Shown: positions 904 through 31,927, counted from the first letter of the stretch. The stretch is DNA of 32,000 bases from Candidatus Saccharimonadota bacterium (GCF_014251775.1 NZ_CP059199.1:330001-362000), one strand, 5' to 3'. The notes: a model not told the origin generated them from the letters alone. Program-made: numbers and translations.

Positions 904-975
904 GGCACTGTGGCCGAATGGATAAGGCGGAGGTCTGCAAAACCTTTTATAGTGGTTCGATTCCACTCTGTGCCT
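904..975 (+). tRNA. tRNA-Cys (anticodon GCA)
   Basis: Hand-folded cloverleaf. Acceptor GGCACTG/CTGTGCC has one T:T mismatch. D arm is GCC..GGC. Anticodon stem GAGGT/ACCTT carries loop CTGCAAA (GCA). T arm is AGTGG-TTCGATT-CCACT. Discriminator is U, and CCA is not encoded. This is the only G+C-rich patch in its surroundings. Confidence 0.85.
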
Positions 976-4566: not shown

Positions 4567-6540
4567 ATGAAAAATGGAAAAAAAAAAGAAAAAAAATATT
4601 TTTTTACTACTGGTACCATAAATATTACTAATTATGGATACGCTTTTGTACATGTAGAAGGAATTCAAAAAGACATTTTTATTCCAAAAGATAAAATAAA
4701 TAGATCACTAGAAGGAGATTTAGTAAAAATAAAATTTAAAAAGAATAAAGTTAAACCAAAAGGAGAAGTATTAAAAATAATAAAAAGAAATAAAAAAAAA
4801 TTTATTGGAATTTTAAAAATTAATCCTCAACATTATTATAATAACAGTACATTAGATATTTCTAATAAAATGCAGATTATATGTATTTGCAATAATGTTT
4901 CAATTTTAATTCCAAAAAATAAATCTAAAAAATATAAACATGATGATAAAGTATTAGTAGAAATAACACGATGGCCAAAAAAAAATAAAAATCCTATAGG
5001 TAGAATTATAAAAGTTTTTGGAAAAATTGGAATTTATAAAACAGAAATTCATTCTTTATTAGAAGAATATGAAATTTCTAATAAATTTTCTCATAAAATA
5101 AAAGATGAAGCTAAAAAAATTTTTTCAAAAGGATTTATAAATTTTAAAGAAAAACAAAATAGAAAAGATATGCGAAGTATCAATACTTTTACTATAGATC
5201 CTATAGATGCAAAAGATTTTGATGATGCTATTTCTATTAGAAAAATAGAAAAAAAAATTTGGGAAATAGGAATTCATATATCTGATGTTACCCATTATCT
5301 TAAAGAAAATAGTATAATAGATAAAGAAGCGTATATACGAACTTCATCTATATATTTAATGGGTAAAGTAATCCCAATGTTACCTAACATATTATCTGAT
5401 GAACTTTGTTCTTTACAACCAGAAATTGATAAATTAAGTTTTTCATTAATATTAAATATTAATGAAAGAGGAAATATTTTAAAAAGTTGGATTGGAAAAA
5501 CTATAATACGATCTAATAAAAAATTTACATACAATGAAGTACAAAAAATTATAGATAAAAAAAAAGGAAAATTTTATAAAGAAATCAATATATTATATTA
5601 TTTATCTAGAAAATTAATTAAAAAAAGATTAAAAAATGGATCTCTTTATTTAGATAGAATTGAAACAAAATTTCAATTAAATGAAAAAAATGATCCAATA
5701 TCTATTGATCTAGAAAAAAATAAAAGTGCTCATTCTTTAATAGAAGAATTTATGCTATTAACTAATCAAAAGATATCAGAATTTATTAGTAAAAAATCCA
5801 ACAATAATAATAAATATAATCAACCACCATCTATATATAGAATTCATGACAAACCAGATCATGAAAAAATATTGTATTTAAAACAAATAATAAAACCGTT
5901 AGGTTATTCCTTAGATTTAAAAAATATAAAAAGTTCTATTAATCATCTTTTATTACAAATAAAAGGAAAACCCGAACAACATATGATTGAAAATTTTGTA
6001 CTTCGTTCAATGAGTAAAGCGAAATATTCTACAAAAAATATTGGACACTATGGATTATCATTTATTCATTATACTCACTTTACTTCTCCAATAAGGAGAT
6101 ATTCTGATATAATAACTCATCGTTTATTGCAGAATTATTTAATGAATAATAAAAAAAAAATAAAATCAATAGATTTTTATGAAAAAAAATTACAACATTG
6201 CAGTAATCAAGAACGTATAATATTAGATATAGAAAGAGAATTTTTTAAATATATGCAAATAAAATTTGCAAAAATATTTTTACAAGAAAAAGAATTTGAT
6301 GGAGTTATAACAGGTTTTAATGAATGGTCTATTTATATTGATTTAATTCCATATCATATAGAAGGAATGATAAAATTACGCAATATCAAAGAAGATTGTT
6401 ATACTTTCAATTCAAATGGATTTAATATAATTGGAAAAGATTATAAAAATATATATTTTGTCGGTGACAAAATCAAAGTAAAAATAATAGATGTAGATCT
6501 AGAAAAAAAATATGTTATATTAGATTGGATTAATAAATAA
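4567..6540 (+). CDS. rnr: Ribonuclease R (RNB-family 3'-5' exoribonuclease)
   Basis: 657 aa. Has the RNB catalytic motifs TIDPIDAKDFDDAIS and HYGLS...YTHFTSPIRRYSDIITHR, and a C-terminal S1-like domain (GVITGFNEWSIYIDL). Confidence 0.9.
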   Translation: MKNGKKKEKKYFFTTGTINITNYGYAFVHVEGIQKDIFIPKDKINRSLEGDLVKIKFKKNKVKPKGEVLKIIKRNKKKFIGILKINPQHYYNNSTLDISNKMQIICICNNVSILIPKNKSKKYKHDDKVLVEITRWPKKNKNPIGRIIKVFGKIGIYKTEIHSLLEEYEISNKFSHKIKDEAKKIFSKGFINFKEKQNRKDMRSINTFTIDPIDAKDFDDAISIRKIEKKIWEIGIHISDVTHYLKENSIIDKEAYIRTSSIYLMGKVIPMLPNILSDELCSLQPEIDKLSFSLILNINERGNILKSWIGKTIIRSNKKFTYNEVQKIIDKKKGKFYKEINILYYLSRKLIKKRLKNGSLYLDRIETKFQLNEKNDPISIDLEKNKSAHSLIEEFMLLTNQKISEFISKKSNNNNKYNQPPSIYRIHDKPDHEKILYLKQIIKPLGYSLDLKNIKSSINHLLLQIKGKPEQHMIENFVLRSMSKAKYSTKNIGHYGLSFIHYTHFTSPIRRYSDIITHRLLQNYLMNNKKKIKSIDFYEKKLQHCSNQERIILDIEREFFKYMQIKFAKIFLQEKEFDGVITGFNEWSIYIDLIPYHIEGMIKLRNIKEDCYTFNSNGFNIIGKDYKNIYFVGDKIKVKIIDVDLEKKYVILDWINK

Positions 6541-6541
6541 T

Positions 6542-7015
6542 TTATTCTATTCTAACTGAAGAGGGTACAAATATAGTATAATCTCCTCCATTTTTTATAA
6601 TACTTCTTACAAGATAAGAACTAATAAATGATCTTTCGTAAGATGAAAATAAAAATATAGTTTCTATTTTATATTTTGTTTCTAAAAAATGATTAATATA
6701 TAATATATCTTTTTCAAATTCAAAATCTATTTGATTTCTTATTCCTCTTAGTAAAAAATTTACTTTTTTTTTCTTACAAAAAGATATAGTTAATCCATTA
6801 AAAGAATTTATTTCTATTTTATTAGATACCCTTAAAAAGGTTTCATATATCCATTTTTTTCTCTTTTTAATAGAAAACATATTTTTTTTATTTGAATTAT
6901 TTCCAATAGCTATAATTATTTTATCAAATAATCTTAAAGCTCTAATAACAATATCATAATGACCTAAAGTTATTGGATCAAAAGTTCCAGGAAATACAGC
7001 TATTCTTTTTGTCAT
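6542..7015 (-). CDS. coaD: Phosphopantetheine adenylyltransferase
   Basis: 157 aa. AVFPGTFDPITLGHYDI is the nucleotidyltransferase T/HxGH motif. Size and remaining sequence are typical of CoaD. Confidence 0.9.
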   Translation of the reverse strand: MTKRIAVFPGTFDPITLGHYDIVIRALRLFDKIIIAIGNNSNKKNMFSIKKRKKWIYETFLRVSNKIEINSFNGLTISFCKKKKVNFLLRGIRNQIDFEFEKDILYINHFLETKYKIETIFLFSSYERSFISSYLVRSIIKNGGDYTIFVPSSVRIE

Positions 7016-7484
7016 TATTTGGTAATGTAAATGTATTTATTCAATAAATAATGGAATAATAATTTAAAATTTATTAATAATATTAAAAAATTATATTAGA
7101 TTGCATCTCTATAACAATAGACTTTAAATTAACAATTTTATCATTATTTATCATTAAAAAATTTATAATAAAAATTATAACTTTATCAAAAAGTAACAAT
7201 CATAAACATCAACATAACATATTTATTTCCAATATTTATATTGGATTTTTTTTATTTAAGATATTTTAAATTTTTATATCGATAATATTTATCATAGATA
7301 TGATAAATTATAAATGAATGTATTTATAACATAACGCTTAATACTAAAAAAAATTTAAATATAAATCAACATTATTACTAAATTATTTTATTTTAATTTT
7401 AAAATATATAAAAAATCAATTATTTGTAGCCATAAAATTTTTTATTCTACTCATATGTAATAAATATAAATAATTATTGCATAC

Positions 7485-10400
7485 GTGAATAAAAAAAAAT
7501 CTTATATTAAAATTTTTATTATTTATTTTTTATCTTTATTACTAGTTTGCATAACTATTATATTTATAGTTATTTATGCAGGATATAAAGGATTTTTAGG
7601 AAAATTACCTAGTGATAAAGAAATAAGAAGTCCAAAAATGGAAATTGGATCAAAAGTATATGATTGTAAAGGCGTATTACTAGGAAAATTTTTTTATGAA
7701 AATAGAAATTTAATTACTTATAAACAACTTCCAAAGAATTTAGTAAATGCTTTATTAGCAAAAGAAGATATACGTTTTCGAAAACATTCAGGAATTGATA
7801 TAAAATCAATTATAAGAGCTATTTTATCTATGGGAAAAAAAGGAGGAGGTAGTACAATTTCCCAACAATTAGCTAAGTTGTTCTTTACTAAGAAATCAGC
7901 AAAAAACAAAATTGAAAGAATTAATCAAAAAATATTAGAATGGATAATCGCTTTAGAATTAGAAAAACGTTATTCTAAAGAAGAAATTATTACTATGTAT
8001 TATAATAAATTCGATTTTTTATACAATGCAAAAGGAATTGATACAGCTGCTCATACATATTTTGATAAAAAAGTTATTAATCTTAATTTAAATGAATGTG
8101 CTATATTGGTTGGAATGCTTGAAAATCCTTCTTTATATAATCCAATAGATTATCCCAATAGAGCAAAAAAACAAAGAAATTTAGTTTTATTTCAAATGAT
8201 GAAATATAACTTTTTAAAGAATAATCAATATAATAATGAGTCTAAAAAACCAATAAGAACTTATTTTAAAATGAAAGATAAGGATATTGAATTTGTTACT
8301 TATTATGGTGGTTTTCTTAAAAAAGAAATTCAAAATTTATTAAATGAATACGAAATAAAAAAAGGAATAAAATTAAATCTTTATACTAGCGGATTAAAAA
8401 TATATACATCTATTGATTCTAGAATGCAGAATTATGCAGAAAAATCTATAAAAATACATCTTAAAAAATTGCAATCAATATTCGATTCTATACAGAAAAA
8501 AAATAAAAAAGCTCCTTTTTCAAATATTTCTTATAAAAAAATAAATCGGATAATTTTATCGTCAATGCGACGAACTAATCTATATAATAGATTGAAAAAG
8601 AAAGGAATGGCTGAAAAAAATATTATAAAAATATTTAAAAAGAAAATTTTAGTTAAATTATTTACTTGGGATGGTAATAAAAAAGTTATGATGTCACCTT
8701 TGGATTTTATCCGTTATAAAAAAGGAATTATTCAAGCCGGATTATTATCAATGGAATCTTCTACAGGCCATATCAAAGCATGGGTTGGGGGTATAGATTT
8801 CAATAATTTTCAATATGATCATGTAGCACAAACAAAAAGACAAGTTGGATCAATATTTAAACCTATTTTATATGCTGCTGCAATTAAAAAATTACATTAT
8901 AATCCTTGTACAATTATTTCAAATGAAAAATTTAAACTAAAAAATTGGATTCCTAGAAATCATAATGGAAAATATGGAGGATTTATGACATTAAAAGATG
9001 GATTGGCACTATCAGTAAATACTGTATCCGCTCGTATAATGGAAAAAGTTACTCCAAAAACAGTAATTGAATTAGCAAAAAAAATGGGGGTAGAATCCAC
9101 TATTCCAGAAAATCAATCCATTGCATTAGGATCTGCAGATCTTACTTTATATGAAATGACAGGAGTATTTAATACTTTTTCAAATTTTGGAATTTATAAT
9201 AAACCTTCTATTTTATTAAAAATAGAAGATAGAAATGGAAATATTATTAAATATAATTATAATATTAAAAGAAAAGTTCTTAATAAAGACGTTGCATATA
9301 TTATGTTAAACTTAATGCAAGGAGTAGTAAAATATGGAACAGCTAAAAGATTAACCAATCTATATAATATTAAAGGAGATATCGCAGGAAAAACTGGTAC
9401 TACTAACGATAATTCAGATGGATGGTTTATAGGGATGATCCCTAATCTCACTACTGGTGTTTGGGTAGGATGGGAAAATAGATTTTCTCATTTTAATAGT
9501 CTAAAATTAGGACAAGGAGCTAATATGGCACTGCCTATATGGGCACATTATACAAACTATTTATATCACGATAAAAACTTTATTTATAATGAAAAAATGT
9601 TTTTTAAAAAACCTAAAAATTATCAATGGGATGAATGTGAAAACAAAATGGATCAAAAAGATGAAGATCAAATTAATCATAAAAAAGATAATAAGGAATT
9701 TATAGAAAATAAAACAGATAATCCAAATACTTTAGAAGATAATAAAGATAAAAATGAATTGAAATCTCCAGATAAAAAAGAAGATAAAGCGATTCAATCT
9801 GAAGAAAAACCCGAAACTAAATCTACCGGTAATAAACCCGAAACTAAATCTACCGGTAATAAATCCGAAACTAAATCTACCGGTAATAAACCCGAAACTA
9901 AATCTACTGGAAAGAAACCCGAAACTAAATCTACTGGGAAGAAACCCGAAACTAAATCTACTGGAAAGAAACCCGAAACTAAATCTACTGGGAAGAAACC
10001 CGAAACTAAATCTACTGGGAAGAAACCCGAAACTAAATCTACTGGAAAGAAACCCGAAACTAAATCTACTGGAAAGAAACCCGAAACTAAATCTACTGGG
10101 AAGAAACCTGAAACTAAATCTACTGGGAAGAAACCTGAAACTAAATCTACTGGTAAGAAACCTGAAACTAAATCTACCGGTAAGAAACCTGAAACTAAAT
10201 CTACTGGTAAGAAACCTGAAACTAAATCTACCGGTAAGAAACCTGAAACTAAATCTAAAGGAAAGAAACCTGAAACTAAATCTAAAGGAAAGAAACCTGA
10301 AACTAAATCTACCGGTAAGAAACCCGAAACTAAATCTACTGGTAAGAAACCTGAAACTAAATCTACCGGTAAGAAACCCGAAACTAAATCTACTGGTAAG

Positions 10401-10949
10401 AAACCTGAAACTAAATCTAAAGGAAAAAAACCTGAACTAAAATCTACTGGTAAGAAACCTGAAACTAAATCTAAAGGAAAAAAACCTGAACTAAAATCTA
10501 CTGGAAAAAAACCTGAAACTAAATCTAAAGGAAAAAAAACTGAACTAAAATCTACTGGAAAAAAACCTGAAACTAAATCTAAAGGAAAGAAAACCGAAAC
10601 TAAATCTACCGGTAAGAAACCTGAAACTAAATCTACCGGTAAGAAACCTGAAACTAAATCTAAAGGAAAAAAACCTGAACTAAAATCTACTGGGAAGAAA
10701 CCTGAAACTAAATCTAAAGGAAAAAAACCTGAACTAAAATCTACTGGAAAAAAACCTGAAACTAAATCTAAAGGAAAGAAACCCGAAACTAAATCTACCG
10801 GTAAGAAAACTGAAACTAAATCTAAAGGAAAAAAACCTGAACTAAAATCTACTGGAAAAAAACCTGAAACTAAATCTACCGGTAAGAAAACTGAAACTAA
10901 ATCTAAAGGAAAAAAACCTGAAACTAAATCTAAAGGAAAAAAACCCTAA
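7485..10949 (+). CDS. mrcA: Class A penicillin-binding protein 1A (transglycosylase/transpeptidase) with a ~380-aa repeat tail
   Basis: N-terminal TM helix. GT51 motifs EDIRFRKHSGID and GGSTISQQLAK. TP motifs SIFK (Ser456), SVN and KTGT (Lys636). GTG at 7485 is the only plausible start: there is a stop 18 nt upstream in frame, and the next in-frame ATG lies after the TM helix. The C-terminal third is the tandem-repeat array. Confidence 0.9.
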   Translation: MNKKKSYIKIFIIYFLSLLLVCITIIFIVIYAGYKGFLGKLPSDKEIRSPKMEIGSKVYDCKGVLLGKFFYENRNLITYKQLPKNLVNALLAKEDIRFRKHSGIDIKSIIRAILSMGKKGGGSTISQQLAKLFFTKKSAKNKIERINQKILEWIIALELEKRYSKEEIITMYYNKFDFLYNAKGIDTAAHTYFDKKVINLNLNECAILVGMLENPSLYNPIDYPNRAKKQRNLVLFQMMKYNFLKNNQYNNESKKPIRTYFKMKDKDIEFVTYYGGFLKKEIQNLLNEYEIKKGIKLNLYTSGLKIYTSIDSRMQNYAEKSIKIHLKKLQSIFDSIQKKNKKAPFSNISYKKINRIILSSMRRTNLYNRLKKKGMAEKNIIKIFKKKILVKLFTWDGNKKVMMSPLDFIRYKKGIIQAGLLSMESSTGHIKAWVGGIDFNNFQYDHVAQTKRQVGSIFKPILYAAAIKKLHYNPCTIISNEKFKLKNWIPRNHNGKYGGFMTLKDGLALSVNTVSARIMEKVTPKTVIELAKKMGVESTIPENQSIALGSADLTLYEMTGVFNTFSNFGIYNKPSILLKIEDRNGNIIKYNYNIKRKVLNKDVAYIMLNLMQGVVKYGTAKRLTNLYNIKGDIAGKTGTTNDNSDGWFIGMIPNLTTGVWVGWENRFSHFNSLKLGQGANMALPIWAHYTNYLYHDKNFIYNEKMFFKKPKNYQWDECENKMDQKDEDQINHKKDNKEFIENKTDNPNTLEDNKDKNELKSPDKKEDKAIQSEEKPETKSTGNKPETKSTGNKSETKSTGNKPETKSTGKKPETKSTGKKPETKSTGKKPETKSTGKKPETKSTGKKPETKSTGKKPETKSTGKKPETKSTGKKPETKSTGKKPETKSTGKKPETKSTGKKPETKSTGKKPETKSTGKKPETKSKGKKPETKSKGKKPETKSTGKKPETKSTGKKPETKSTGKKPETKSTGKKPETKSKGKKPELKSTGKKPETKSKGKKPELKSTGKKPETKSKGKKTELKSTGKKPETKSKGKKTETKSTGKKPETKSTGKKPETKSKGKKPELKSTGKKPETKSKGKKPELKSTGKKPETKSKGKKPETKSTGKKTETKSKGKKPELKSTGKKPETKSTGKKTETKSKGKKPETKSKGKKP
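9807..10946 (+). repeat. About 42 tandem in-frame copies of a 27-nt unit encoding KPETKSTGK and variants
   Basis: Direct reading: consensus aaa cc[c/t] gaa act aaa tct ac[c/t] ggn aa[g/a], uninterrupted from 9807 to the last codon before the stop. 1140 nt / 27 = 42.2 units. The 3' half is organised as 54-nt double units. Confidence 0.95.
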
Positions 10950-11160: not shown

Positions 11161-12786
11161 TCAATAAACGTCTTTTACATACTTTTTAATTTTTTTCATT
11201 TTGTTTATAAATAATATAGGGTCTTCTTTTCCTATTTCTTTTATAACCCGTAATATTGTATTTTCTACATCTACACTCATAGGATTTTTTTTTCCACATA
11301 TATATATATATGCTCCATTTTTTATCCAATGGAAAAATTTCTCTCTATTTTCCCATATTTTATCTTGAACATATATCTTTTTTTTTTGATCTCTAGAAAA
11401 AGAAATATTTAAACGATCTAAAACTCCATTTTTTATCCAATTTTTAATTTCAGATTTATATAAATAATCATATTTATAATACTGATCTCCAAAAAATAAC
11501 CAATTTTTTCCTGTTGATTTTGTTAATTCTCTTTCATATAAAAAAGATCTAAACGGAGCTATTCCTGTTCCAGGTCCTATCATAATTATATCTTCATTAC
11601 GATTAGGTAATTTGAAAAAATTATTTTTATAAATAAAAAAACGTAGTTGATCACCTTTTTTCAGATTAGATAAAAAATTAGAACAATAACCATATTTTAT
11701 TTTTCCATTTTTTTGAAATTTATTCAATAATACTGTGATATGTATTTCATTTAAATGTTTTTTTGGAGAAGAAGATATTGAATATAACCTAGGTTTTATA
11801 GGATCCATTATATTTATTATTTTTTTTAAAGAATAAATATTTTTTTGATCAATAGGATACCTATTAATTAAGTTAAAAATATCCCATTTTATTTCTTTAG
11901 AAATAATTATATTTTCATTATTACTTAATAGTAATGAATAATCTTTCAAAAATCTTTCAGATAAATTATATATACTTTTTTCTTTTTTTAAAGACAAAAA
12001 AATATCATAATTTTTTTTACAATCCTTTTCCCCAAAAATTTTCAATATTTTACAAACTTCATCATAAGTATTCTCAGGATAAATTCCTACAGAATCTCCT
12101 GGAAGATATTCTAAAGAAGATTTTATCTCAATATGATGAATTTTTCTATCAATATTTTTATTAATTATTATATTTTTAGATATGATTCCTATTGTTATTT
12201 TATTTTTTCTTAGAAAGAATTCTAATATATTTTTCAACCATTGTTTTGAATCTTCTATATACGAAACATCACATTTACATAATTTTAATATTCTAATACC
12301 TCCTATAATTTCTAATTGTTTATCTATATTTTCTCCAGCTTTACAAAAATTTTTATATGTTTTATCACCTAATGCTACAACACTATATTTCAAATTATTT
12401 AGATAAATATTTGTATGAATAAATTTAAAAAATTTTTTTCCTGAATTAGGGGGATCTCCATCGCCATGTGTACTAATGATGATCAGTAAATAATCTTCTT
12501 TATATAAGTTAGATAAACAATAATCATTTAAATCAAATAATTTTATGTTTAATTTTTTTTGTTTTATTTTGTTATAAATAGTAAAAGCTAAATCTTCTGC
12601 ATTTCCAGTTTCACTACTATAAACTATAGTAATTTTTTCTTTATTAAGGTTATTATTATCATTATTTTTTTTTCTATTGAAATCATATAAATATCCAGAT
12701 ATAAAACCCGACATCCATATAATTTCTTTTTTAGATGAATTTTTAATTAAATCAATAAATATTTTATTATTGGATTTTTGTAACAT
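11161..12786 (-). CDS. cysJ: Sulfite reductase [NADPH] flavoprotein alpha-component
   Basis: 541 aa. Has a flavodoxin-like FMN domain (TIVYSSETGNAEDLA), FAD motif RLYSISSS, NADPH motif GPGTGIAPFRSF and a C-terminal ...YVKDVY. Confidence 0.85.
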   Translation of the reverse strand: MLQKSNNKIFIDLIKNSSKKEIIWMSGFISGYLYDFNRKKNNDNNNLNKEKITIVYSSETGNAEDLAFTIYNKIKQKKLNIKLFDLNDYCLSNLYKEDYLLIIISTHGDGDPPNSGKKFFKFIHTNIYLNNLKYSVVALGDKTYKNFCKAGENIDKQLEIIGGIRILKLCKCDVSYIEDSKQWLKNILEFFLRKNKITIGIISKNIIINKNIDRKIHHIEIKSSLEYLPGDSVGIYPENTYDEVCKILKIFGEKDCKKNYDIFLSLKKEKSIYNLSERFLKDYSLLLSNNENIIISKEIKWDIFNLINRYPIDQKNIYSLKKIINIMDPIKPRLYSISSSPKKHLNEIHITVLLNKFQKNGKIKYGYCSNFLSNLKKGDQLRFFIYKNNFFKLPNRNEDIIMIGPGTGIAPFRSFLYERELTKSTGKNWLFFGDQYYKYDYLYKSEIKNWIKNGVLDRLNISFSRDQKKKIYVQDKIWENREKFFHWIKNGAYIYICGKKNPMSVDVENTILRVIKEIGKEDPILFINKMKKIKKYVKDVY

Positions 12787-30687: not shown

Positions 30688-31263
30688 TTAATTTTTTTTT
30701 TTAAATGGAATTCCTAATAAAGATAAAAGACCTTTAGATTCCAAATATTTTGTTGTAGAAATTACAAATGTAATATTCATTCCCATATTTTTTCTAATTT
30801 CATCTATATTTATTTCTGGAAAAATTATTTGTTCTTTAATTCCAATATTATAATTTCCACAATTATCAAATCCACTATTGGATAATCCATTAAAATCTCT
30901 TACTCTAGGTAAATAAACTACAATAAGTCTTTCCAGGAATTCATACATTTTATCTCTTCTTAATGTTACTTTTACACCTATAGGGGTCCCTTTTCTTAAT
31001 TTAAATCCAGATTCGTCATGTTTAGAATAACAAATAATTGCTTTTTGTCCACTTATATTTGTTAATTCTTTTAAAGAAGAGTCTAATATTTTTTTATCAT
31101 TTAAATAAGTACTACCTATTCCCTGATGAATTACAATTTTTAATAATTTAGGAACTTCCATAATAGAATTATACCCAAATTTTTTCATTAATTTTTTAGT
31201 TACATTTTTTTTATAAAAATTATATAATTGAGGGGTGTAATCAGAAAAATTATTTAGATTCAT
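30688..31263 (-). CDS. rplE: 50S ribosomal protein L5
   Basis: 191 aa. YTPQLYNFYKKNVTKKLMKKFGYNSIMEVPKLLKIVIHQGIG and MYEFLERLI are canonical. The start overlaps the rplX 3' end by 14 nt. Confidence 0.9.
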   Translation of the reverse strand: MNLNNFSDYTPQLYNFYKKNVTKKLMKKFGYNSIMEVPKLLKIVIHQGIGSTYLNDKKILDSSLKELTNISGQKAIICYSKHDESGFKLRKGTPIGVKVTLRRDKMYEFLERLIVVYLPRVRDFNGLSNSGFDNCGNYNIGIKEQIIFPEINIDEIRKNMGMNITFVISTTKYLESKGLLSLLGIPFKKKN

Positions 31264-31927
31264 TTTTATTAATCTTTTTTAGATTAGATAAATGTATATA
31301 ATATCTATTTTTTGATTCTTTATTAAAACTTTTTTTCAAATTATTATTAAAATTCTTTTTCAAATTTTTATTAAAATAATTTTTCAAATTATTATTAAAA
31401 TTTTTTTTCAAATTTTTATTAAGATAATTTTTTAAATTTTTATCAAAATAGTTTTTCAAATCTTTATCAAGATCATTTTTCAAATCTTTATCAAGATCAT
31501 TTTTTGAATCTTTATCAAGATCATTTTTCAAATCTTTATCAAGATCATTTTTTGAATCTTTATCAAGATCATTTTTTGAATCTTTATCAAGATCATTTTT
31601 TGAATCTTTATCAAGATCATTTTTCAAATCTTTATCAAGATCATTTTTTGAATCTTTATCAAGATCATTTTTTGAATCTTTATCAAGATCATTTTTTGAA
31701 TCTTTATCAGAATTATTTATATTTACATTTGTGATATCATTGTTTATATTGATATCACTGTTTACATTAGTGATATCACTAAACTTAGTGATATCACTAT
31801 TAATAATATCACTAAAAATAGCTTTATTTTTTTTTGTTAAAATTTTTAATACAATTCCTTTTTTCCCTTTGTGATTTCCAGATAATACAATTACTTTATC
31901 CCCTTTTTTTATCTTAAATTTTTTCAT
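31250..31927 (-). CDS. rplX: 50S ribosomal protein L24, highly aberrant: KOW domain + ~165-aa repeat insertion + short conserved strand, C-terminus missing
   Basis: Canonical position between rplN and rplE. The N-terminal KOW motif KKGDKVIVLSGNHKGKKGIVLKILTKKNKAI is present. Residues ~38-201 are low-complexity repeats. YYIHLSNL resembles the conserved (P)IHxSNV strand. Total length is 225 aa versus about 100-110 aa for normal bacterial L24. Confidence 0.75.
   Translation of the reverse strand: MKKFKIKKGDKVIVLSGNHKGKKGIVLKILTKKNKAIFSDIINSDITKFSDITNVNSDININNDITNVNINNSDKDSKNDLDKDSKNDLDKDSKNDLDKDLKNDLDKDSKNDLDKDSKNDLDKDSKNDLDKDLKNDLDKDSKNDLDKDLKNDLDKDLKNYFDKNLKNYLNKNLKKNFNNNLKNYFNKNLKKNFNNNLKKSFNKESKNRYYIHLSNLKKINKNESK
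31325..31708 (-). repeat. 16 tandem in-frame copies of a 24-nt unit (gat aaa gat tca/ttg aaa aat gat ctt = DKD[S/L]KNDL): 10 near-perfect copies, then 6 decayed
   Basis: Direct reading. The plus strand shows aagatcatttttt(g/c)a(a)atctttatc iterated. Near-perfect units occupy 31469-31708. Decayed units (DKDLKNYF, DKNLKNYL, NKNLKKNF, NNNLKNYF, NKNLKKNF, NNNLKKSF) occupy 31325-31468. Confidence 0.95.
31731..31815 (-). repeat. Degenerate 18-21-nt tandem repeat carrying the palindrome GATATC (encodes SDITN[V/F]N-like units)
   Basis: gtgatatcac(t) recurs at about 31731, 31750, 31770 and 31788, with a degenerate copy (aatatcact) at about 31806. It lies immediately N-terminal to the 24-nt array in the L24 reading frame. 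Confidence 0.8.

Follow-up and report, generated by a model that had tools for sequence, protein, structure and literature searches.

The subject of this analysis is the gene for PBP1A, a class A penicillin-binding protein (PBP), encoded in a stretch of 32,000 nucleotides (nt) of DNA (NZ_CP059199.1:330001-362000, the whole of which is here called the window), and in particular the long tandem repeat with which this gene ends. The 3′ end of the open reading frame (ORF) is made up of 42 units of 27 nt which encode a lysine-rich C-terminal tail, and we describe it as a lineage-specific coding minisatellite in a fast-evolving strain with a small genome. With regard to its origin, we consider it fairly probable that slippage or unequal recombination expanded the last nine codons of a disordered and weakly constrained tail, and that the longer tail has been tolerated as a nearly neutral change under generic constraint. 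An earlier note on this DNA had offered a neutral product of slippage as an alternative to a functional extension of the enzyme, and this alternative has become the best-supported reading.

Anatomy of the repeat array

Tandem Repeats Finder places the array at positions 9807-10945 (period 27, 42.2 copies, 89% matches, score 1538), and cutting of 9807-10946 into 27-mers yields 42 full units and the partial unit AAACCC, at once followed by the stop codon TAA. Together with the ORF listing, this agrees with the previously claimed in-frame array of 42 units reaching up to the stop codon of a PBP1A of 1154 residues: the array makes up the 3′ end of the ORF and no stop codon interrupts its 1140 nt. 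In the same listing no ORF of at least 60 residues was found in another frame of the array region on either strand. A search of the window for the unit, allowing for up to 3 mismatches, returned 23 matches, every one within the array, while none of 100 shuffles gave any. The gene is organized as follows:

7485..10949, + strand: complete ORF of PBP1A, a class A PBP (GTG start, 1154 residues plus stop codon; ORF listing)
7494..7586, + strand: N-terminal membrane-anchor helix, residues 4-34 (AlphaFold2 helix; hydrophobic stretch IKIFIIYFLSLLLVCITIIFIVIYAG)
7677..8198, + strand: glycosyltransferase (transglycosylase) domain, residues 65-238 (Pfam PF00912, E = 8.8e-52)
8751..9461, + strand: transpeptidase domain, residues 423-659 (Pfam PF00905, E = 2.6e-23)
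9627..9806, + strand: acidic low-complexity linker, residues 715-774 (net charge -8, isoelectric point (pI) 4.6)
9807..9887, + strand: units 1-3, with AAT (Asn) ends, KPETKSTGN twice and KSETKSTGN once (unit table)
9888..10400, + strand: units 4-22, nearly all KPETKSTGK (SKG in units 17-18), with mostly third-position differences (CCC/CCT, ACC/ACT, GGA/GGG/GGT)
10401..10940, + strand: units 23-42, SKG and EL/STG alternating (54-nt higher-order unit), with duplicated blocks of 7-9 units
10941..10949, + strand: terminal partial unit AAACCC and stop codon TAA (sequence)

The description of the array as 42 copies of KPETKSTGK is accurate as to the number of units but not as to the peptide, since the exact consensus is present in only 20 of them. 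The peptides encoded by the units are distributed as follows:

KPETKSTGK: 20 units
KPETKSKGK: 10 units
KPELKSTGK: 5 units
KPETKSTGN: 2 units
KTETKSKGK: 2 units
KSETKSTGN: 1 unit
KTELKSTGK: 1 unit
KTETKSTGK: 1 unit

The variation is thus limited to a few recurrent replacements, as had been noted, namely SKG (12 units), EL (6), KT (4), KS (1) and a terminal N, which ends 3 units and only the first three. At the DNA level there are 17 distinct unit types with 9 variable columns out of 27, and five of these nine are third codon positions, in line with the many third-position differences already reported. The EL variant differs as proposed (GAAACTAAA to GAACTAAAA). A content of 11 G/C in 27 nt, put forward as a property of the units in general, is found in 5 units only (range 6-11, mean 33%), but with 33% G+C the array does exceed both the catalytic part of the gene (24%) and the flanks (~19%).

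The two halves of the array differ in their internal organization. Within the first 22 units the self-identity amounts to 0.952 at an offset of 27 nt, and in the last 20 units it is 0.879 at 54 nt versus 0.803 at 27 nt, which agrees with a 54-nt higher-order unit in the 3′ half. This is however a partial description, as self-identity in the last 20 units peaks at 0.90-0.906 at offsets of 189 and 243 nt; these higher values indicate that blocks of 7-9 units have been duplicated. The G+C content at third codon positions decreases from 0.26 in units 1-11 to 0.18 in units 12-22 and 0.08 in the last 20 units, the value for the catalytic part being 0.116. The 3′ half also contains twelve runs of seven or eight adenines (10424-10943). 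The array is bounded on both sides by the 6-nt direct repeat AAACCC, and at its end TAA takes the place of the GAA of a full unit. Head-to-tail units, a unit length that is a multiple of three, high DNA identity and higher-order duplications, which are among the features of a coding minisatellite generated by slippage, are all observed. Rfam and promoter/terminator scans detected no RNA family and no terminator in or adjoining the array.

The enzyme, its tail and the tails of related strains

Judged from its sequence, the enzyme that carries the array is an intact bifunctional synthase and no pseudogene. The full protein (residues 1-1154) has a predicted mass of 130.6 kDa and a pI of 10.0, and is 100% identical to WP_238785117.1 of Blattabacterium cuenoti, encoded on a 561,716-bp contig and named in RefSeq 'transglycosylase domain-containing protein [Blattabacterium cuenoti]'. 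It has the single N-terminal membrane anchor of a class A PBP, as evidenced by the AlphaFold2 helix at residues 4-34 and by hydrophobicity, and the GT51 motifs are present (E94 in EDIRFRKHSG, from residue 94, and GGSTISQQ at 121). The transpeptidase motifs are likewise all present, S456-IFK (SxxK), S510-VN (SxN) and K636-TG (KTG), the last one at the lysine given in the earlier note. The best NCBIfam match is TIGR02074 (PBP_1a_fam), covering model positions 2-533 of 535 with 483.5 bits, slightly under the cutoff of 508.75 bits, as is to be expected of a divergent A+T-rich symbiont; RefSeq calls the orthologues PBP1A. In the AlphaFold2 model, computed from an alignment of 31 sequences, the catalytic part is predicted with moderate to high confidence, and the last predicted helix stops at residue 695. 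The gene order in the window is RNase R, CTP_transf_like (probably coaD), PBP1A, a cysJ-like gene, and then a PALP-domain gene and a hexapeptide-transferase gene, and the order around PBP1A is the same in other Blattabacterium strains. Protein identity and common gene order together indicate that the window comes from a cockroach endosymbiont (Blattabacterium).

The repeat tail proper (residues 775-1154) comprises 380 residues with a mass of 40.8 kDa and a pI of 10.3. It contains 136 lysines and 42 glutamates, resulting in a net charge of +94, and 30% serine plus threonine; 33% of the unit is Ser, Thr or Gly. The tail lies at the extreme C-terminus behind the last folded domain, running from about residue 720 to 1154, and should be periplasmic according to the topology of class A PBPs. 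The disorder prediction carried out here is in agreement with the cationic, presumably disordered extension that had been proposed: for residues 720-1154 AlphaFold2 gives a predicted local distance difference test (pLDDT) score of 27-36 (about 30) and a model with no DSSP secondary structure, and in a charge-hydropathy analysis the mean hydropathy of the tail (0.258, the boundary being 0.502 at its net charge) falls on the disordered side. The repeat tail is therefore predicted to be intrinsically disordered, with a radius of gyration of ~5.6-6.7 nm (Flory-type estimate) and a contour length of 144 nm. The linker at residues 715-774 is acidic, as described previously, and would correspond to the ancestral short acidic tail of the Flavobacteriales PBP1A.

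Comparison with orthologues, which the earlier note had suggested, places the array in a single lineage as a recent, derived addition. The nearest orthologues are ~70% identical in the catalytic part, with no close sister strain among them, and most of those from about 35 other Blattabacterium are 749-825 residues long. Their tails measure 45-75 residues and are acidic or neutral (net charge -20 to +2 among the tails examined), the window tail alone being strongly cationic (+91 to +94) in this set. The closest sampled orthologue (P0002, CP059216), the sister of the window strain by neighbour joining, has 806 residues and no array, as is the case for ~30 further orthologues; a KPETKSTGK-type unit was absent from all 29 loci retrieved. 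A genome scan with six peptides specific to the window yielded no confirmed relative, which suggests that the collection scanned does not include the genome of this strain; a second, alignment-based scan yielded 25 loci, 7 of them from Blattabacterium. The DNA of the tail and 3′ flank is too diverged from that of CP059216 for the seed of the unit to be located in an alignment of the two. In orthologues P0003-P0060 the Flavobacteriales PBP1A ends in a conserved motif, [IVL]-[DNS]-[FY]-[DNSE]-[DEKQ] (for example ...KDYDK, ...INYDD, ...ISFE and ...IDFNQ), which suggests a binding partner as yet unknown. The window strain lacks this motif, as do most of the Blattabacterium strains on long branches, and one reduced relative (P0061, 711 residues) is almost tail-less.

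At least five other Blattabacterium strains have in-frame arrays, unrelated to that of the window, in the same PBP1A tail:

CP059183: NKELKTDDNI, 30 nt, 22.4 copies, 100% match
AMAZOsp (CP059220): NEKNNEENL, 27 nt, 5.7 copies, 98% match
CP059217: NHQSNQNDE, 27 nt, 11.3 copies, 96% match
CP059218: NNPNENDKS, 27 nt, 4.3 copies, 87% match
CHORISOsp (CP059214): KKGSETTQEKNQTVPSHP, 54 nt, 54% G+C, 5 + 2.1 copies, 98% / 93% match

The strains of CP059217 and CP059218 are sisters in the neighbour-joining tree and their units are alike by eye, no alignment being involved, so that the two arrays may have one origin and different copy numbers; if these two related 27-nt arrays are counted once, the arrays of the other strains have four independent origins. 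The window array exceeds them in length and in internal divergence, and it alone is strongly cationic. A shared origin with the CHORISOsp unit was considered and rejected, as KKGSETTQEKNQTVPSHP and KKPETKSTG agree by eye at only ~4 of 18 positions. The periods in the other strains (27, 27, 27, 30 and 54 nt; loci L001, L006, L007, L028 and L029) show that a nine-codon period recurs, and P0007 has small two-copy duplications with a period of nine residues; this recurrence may reflect either a mechanistic preference or chance. In the neighbour-joining tree of the catalytic domains every extended tail is on a long branch, in genomes of 511-595 kb, although this is a rough distance tree without support values, and long-branch attraction may account for the way in which the long branches group at its base. 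In Blattabacterium gene loss is known to rise with the substitution (mutation) rate (PMC8382890).

Repeat expansion is also found outside PBP1A. A second in-frame coding array of the window, at 31307-31718 and with a period of 24/48/72 nt, sits in an ORF of 225 residues (31250..31927, - strand) for ribosomal protein L24, directly upstream of L5. This ORF encodes a KOW motif (residues 8-37) and then DKDSKNDL repeated ~16 times. The match to the bacterial L24 model is confined to residues 4-42 (positions 2-40 of 104; 39 bits, cutoff 53.7), so that the C-terminal two-thirds of L24 appear to have been replaced or expanded by repeats. In CP059216 (locus L027) an array of 4.9 copies of 21 nt at 100% identity lies at 6724-6826, within the coordinates of cysJ (5686-7383, minus strand); its period is again a multiple of three. 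The L24 array and that in the cysJ coordinates indicate that the expansion process is not specific to PBP1A.

The neighbourhood of the gene shows some further variation. The cysJ-like gene adjoining PBP1A in the window (11161-12786, - strand) encodes 541 residues including a flavodoxin domain. In three other strains the cysJ-like gene has just 358-363 residues (L001, 6173-7264; L028, 3888-4964; L029, 4093-5169), with FAD_binding_1 and NAD_binding_1 as the only recorded families, a length difference that indicates lineage-specific domain loss. A tRNA gene at 904-975 (+ strand) is the sole Rfam match in the window at the gathering threshold.

Searches for homologues of the repeat, also suggested in the earlier note, returned only unrelated repeats and no PBP. 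No homologue of the KPETKSTGK unit was found in a word-indexed search of 5.8 billion protein clusters, the matches to the tail being low-complexity proteins of the KKPETK type whose likeness is one of composition and not of ancestry; this search of the tail missed the PBP1A protein itself, and the composition filters of HMMER limit searches of this kind. An exhaustive search of 1.84 billion representatives gave 519 matches, headed by unrelated repeats of period nine and with no PBP, and a sequence search of the PDB gave matches at chance level only (the repeat region of coagulation factor V, inulosucrase). An exact-pattern scan of metagenome contigs for the unit junction had 0 matches, and in the literature we found no paper on repeat tails of the Blattabacterium PBP1A.

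Origin of the array and rival explanations

The anatomy of the array is consistent with a simple course of events. Slipped-strand mispairing or unequal recombination would have affected the final 27 nt of the coding sequence, in a lineage whose PBP1A no longer carried the C-terminal motif conserved across the family. The direct repeat at both bounds and the TAA found where a unit has GAA fit slippage of the last nine codons, and units 1-3, with their AAT ends, may be the nearest to the seed. Growth would have taken place by single units first and by blocks of 54, 189 and 243 nt afterwards, with A+T-biased mutation lowering the third-position G+C along the array. Among the replacements, changes of ACT to AAA (T to K) and of AAT or AAG to AAA dominate; as N to K and T to K raise the A+T content, the drift towards lysine is as one would expect from the mutation bias of this genome. 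To explain the EL variant takes three substitutions, or else a deletion plus an insertion at two neighbouring A3 runs. A double indel (ACT AAA to CTA AAA) with subsequent copying into six units would account for it, and since six units carry it, a single origin followed by copying is probable.

The lengthening of an already disordered tail would have been tolerated as nearly neutral and without any new specific function, generic selection alone keeping the tail in frame and polar. In fact, according to the unit sequence a lone -1 shift would produce leucine-rich units of the NLKLNLLER type through the rest of the array, and a +1 shift at the A7 runs leads to ACC TGA, that is to an immediate stop. 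Avoidance of a leucine-rich out-of-frame tail would thus be a sufficient reason for the frame being kept. In endosymbionts, slippage during replication or transcription readily occurs at A tracts. A run of nine adenines is also present at 7491-7499, in the KKK codons right behind the GTG start of PBP1A, and this run and the A7-A8 runs of the array could give rise to products of mixed tail length.

We favour this near-neutral origin because the expansions track long branches and strike L24 and the cysJ coordinates as well as PBP1A, because the independent arrays have no common composition or charge, and because the nearest relative has no array while the catalytic gene is intact, the tail disordered and the terminal motif already lost. 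A number of observations nevertheless weigh against it. The strong cationic charge is unique among the tails examined, a contrast which could reflect selection, and repeats are otherwise rare in Blattabacterium: by the cutoffs of one survey, 28 of its 43 RefSeq assemblies lack them altogether (bioRxiv 10.64898/2026.08.14.744864). At 89% identity between units, the window array has diverged furthest and is probably older than the others, so that it would have persisted for some time, and 1.1 kb of dispensable DNA is unexpected in a reduced genome. The frame is intact despite the twelve A7-A8 runs and one compensated pair of indels. Moreover, a class A PBP of B. subtilis has a C-terminal disordered region of demonstrated function (PMC9732909). 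Finally, differences among units are enriched in synonymous changes. The per-site comparison that had been suggested yields a pairwise ratio of replacement to synonymous differences (pN/pS) of about 0.21, and along a minimum-spanning tree of the unit types 11 codon changes are synonymous and 7 are replacements, the numbers of sites being 6.3 and 20.7, respectively (binomial p = 0.0007). Both figures call for caution, as the units are copies of one another and not independent samples; when distinct mutations are counted, on the assumption that recombination has reshuffled the variants, there are ~5 synonymous and 6-7 replacement changes, and significance is lost (p ~0.09-0.13). The synonymous differences are therefore only suggestive of selection on the peptide.

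The same observations bear on the possibility, which we regard as rather doubtful, that the array encodes a functional disordered tail outside the cytoplasm. In the manner of the disordered C-terminus of B. subtilis PBP1, or by analogy with the Lpo activators known from Gram-negative bacteria, the polycation would enter pores or gaps of the sacculus, or stick to anionic components of the envelope, and so hold the synthase in place, and its expansion would have been favoured by selection, for example once the ancestral C-terminal motif or its partner had been lost. Since disordered regions of class A PBPs work and tolerate scrambling (PMC9732909), one built of repeats could do so too. The window tail has the same topological position and is likewise predicted to be disordered, and its charge has been reversed to +94, as in no other tail examined. 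Its estimated radius of gyration and contour length are enough to span the periplasm, whose width is taken from general knowledge. The synonymous excess and the frame kept through many A runs point in the same direction, and the fact that several lineages lengthened the same tail could be viewed as convergent tuning of its length. However, the independent arrays differ in composition and charge (acidic N/E/D-rich versus K-rich) and range from 4 to 42 units; the expansions occur in fast-evolving strains only and also affect L24 and the cysJ coordinates; some reduced relatives, such as P0061, do nearly without a tail; the synonymous excess loses significance by distinct mutations; and A+T mutation bias would by itself give lysine enrichment. 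A bolder and still less probable proposal is that the PBP1A tail is an evolvable disordered 'feeler', tunable in length and charge, whose expansion would have been selected repeatedly, in Blattabacterium lineages deprived of the ancestral tail motif or of its partner, to restore contact of the synthase with the sacculus or outer membrane; the +94 form would bind anionic components of the envelope.

Two further explanations carry less weight than these. It is quite improbable, in our estimation, that the array is an assembly artefact of a short-read project, the true gene having fewer or different units or a frameshift. Such artefacts may affect sister assemblies: in the CHORISOsp record (L007, NZ_CP059214; 5219-5800) an array of five 54-nt units with 54% G+C, in a locus of ~27% G+C, gives way to a single N at 5488, to ~190 nt of re-started upstream flanking sequence and then to 2.1 more units, a pattern suggestive of an assembly join left unresolved at the repeat, and in CP059183 an array of 672 nt at 100% identity is of a kind that short reads would be unable to size. 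The exact window protein is on record from one contig only, the locus having no second assembly, and the scan of metagenome contigs gave no second copy. Against this, the longest exact internal repeat of the window array is 83 nt, so that reads or k-mers of at least 100 nt can tile it uniquely, its 17 unit types stand in a structured order with higher-order blocks, which would be unlike a collapse or over-expansion, and the frame is unbroken over 42 units. We take the copy number of the window array as provisional. Most improbable of all is a rigid proline-rich spacer of the TonB type, fixing the distance between synthase and outer membrane, to which the earlier note had likened the tail. In TonB, runs of (Glu-Pro)n(Lys-Pro)m place a proline at about every second residue and form a stiff rod. 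The window tail is a K/E/P-rich periplasmic segment with KP-E at each unit start, but proline makes up 10% of it (38 of 380 residues), with one KP per nine residues and no (EP)n, (KP)n or other X-Pro dipeptide runs; the AlphaFold2 model, of very low confidence, has no extended regular structure, and the Ser, Thr and Gly content of the unit favours flexibility.

Significance and comparison with known systems

If the near-neutral reading holds true, the window would provide a natural example of an essential cell-wall synthase tolerating a large amount of extra disordered mass, as the tail adds 40.8 kDa, ~45% more, to a remainder of ~90 kDa, and it would follow that slippage builds long in-frame arrays even in shrinking genomes of 0.56 Mb. 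The recurrent expansions constitute a natural series from which one may ask whether the disordered regions of class A PBPs are of importance to diderm bacteria and whether fast-evolving symbionts have lost control over repeat stability. At least one sister assembly being broken at its array, the public lengths of these genes are to be taken as provisional. Should the 'feeler' proposal prove true instead, the mechanism of the Firmicute PBP1 disordered region would extend to Gram-negative endosymbionts, and minisatellites would be a fast route to functional disordered regions.

The earlier note knew of no described PBP tail of this type. Disordered C-termini of class A PBPs have in fact been published, and other Blattabacterium PBP1A proteins have repeat tails. 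The window tail is a combination of known kinds, the C-terminal disordered region of a class A PBP and the coding minisatellite of an endosymbiont. It stands out through its size and charge, and because it belongs to a set of expansions that arose independently in the same tail. In B. subtilis PBP1 the C-terminal disordered region (121 residues) is needed for full function, works when scrambled and is proposed, by analogy with Lpo factors, to hold the synthase at peptidoglycan gaps, and many Gram-positive PBP1 homologues have such a region as well (PMC9732909). In streptococci, PBP1a and PBP1b likewise end in disordered regions rich in Ser and Thr; that of PBP1a has been shown to be glycosylated, and it supports PBP1a protein levels (PMC12041528). 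As in these Firmicute proteins, the window tail is low in complexity, contains Ser and Thr, is predicted to be disordered and would be located outside the cytoplasm, at the extreme C-terminus of a bifunctional synthase. In contrast, it occurs in an endosymbiont belonging to the diderm Bacteroidota, it is not preceded by an FN3 domain, and it is three times longer, built of near-identical tandem DNA units and charged to +94. Function in the Firmicute tails rests on disorder and not on residue order.

Tandem expansions have been reported in other A+T-rich reduced genomes, where they are tied to fast evolution or reduced repair. In Portiera, microsatellites with 7-bp units have proliferated in intergenic DNA once genes for replication and repair were lost (PMC3673631), and in Karelsulcia in-frame expansions of a 6-bp repeat in atpB, an essential gene, sweep at 6-9 copies (PMC13345377). 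The window array resembles these systems in its genomic setting and differs from them in being 27 nt × 42, coding and relatively G+C-rich. With the TonB spacer the tail has in common that it is a K/E/P-rich periplasmic segment of a protein anchored in the inner membrane, but at 10% proline it is predicted to be a flexible coil. The closest parallels are the other Blattabacterium PBP1A arrays, which involve the same gene and tail, frame-keeping units of high identity and small genomes on long branches; those arrays have unrelated units, form acidic or neutral tails and number 4-22 units, whereas the window array (42 units, 89% identity, cationic) stands at the very end of its tail with no C-terminal motif behind it. 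As in the Flavobacteriales PBP1A tail, an acidic N/D/E/K-rich linker (residues 715-774) stands directly behind a conserved Cys-containing stretch (W..C) that follows the transpeptidase domain; unlike in that tail, the terminal motif is gone and 380 residues of basic repeats take its place.

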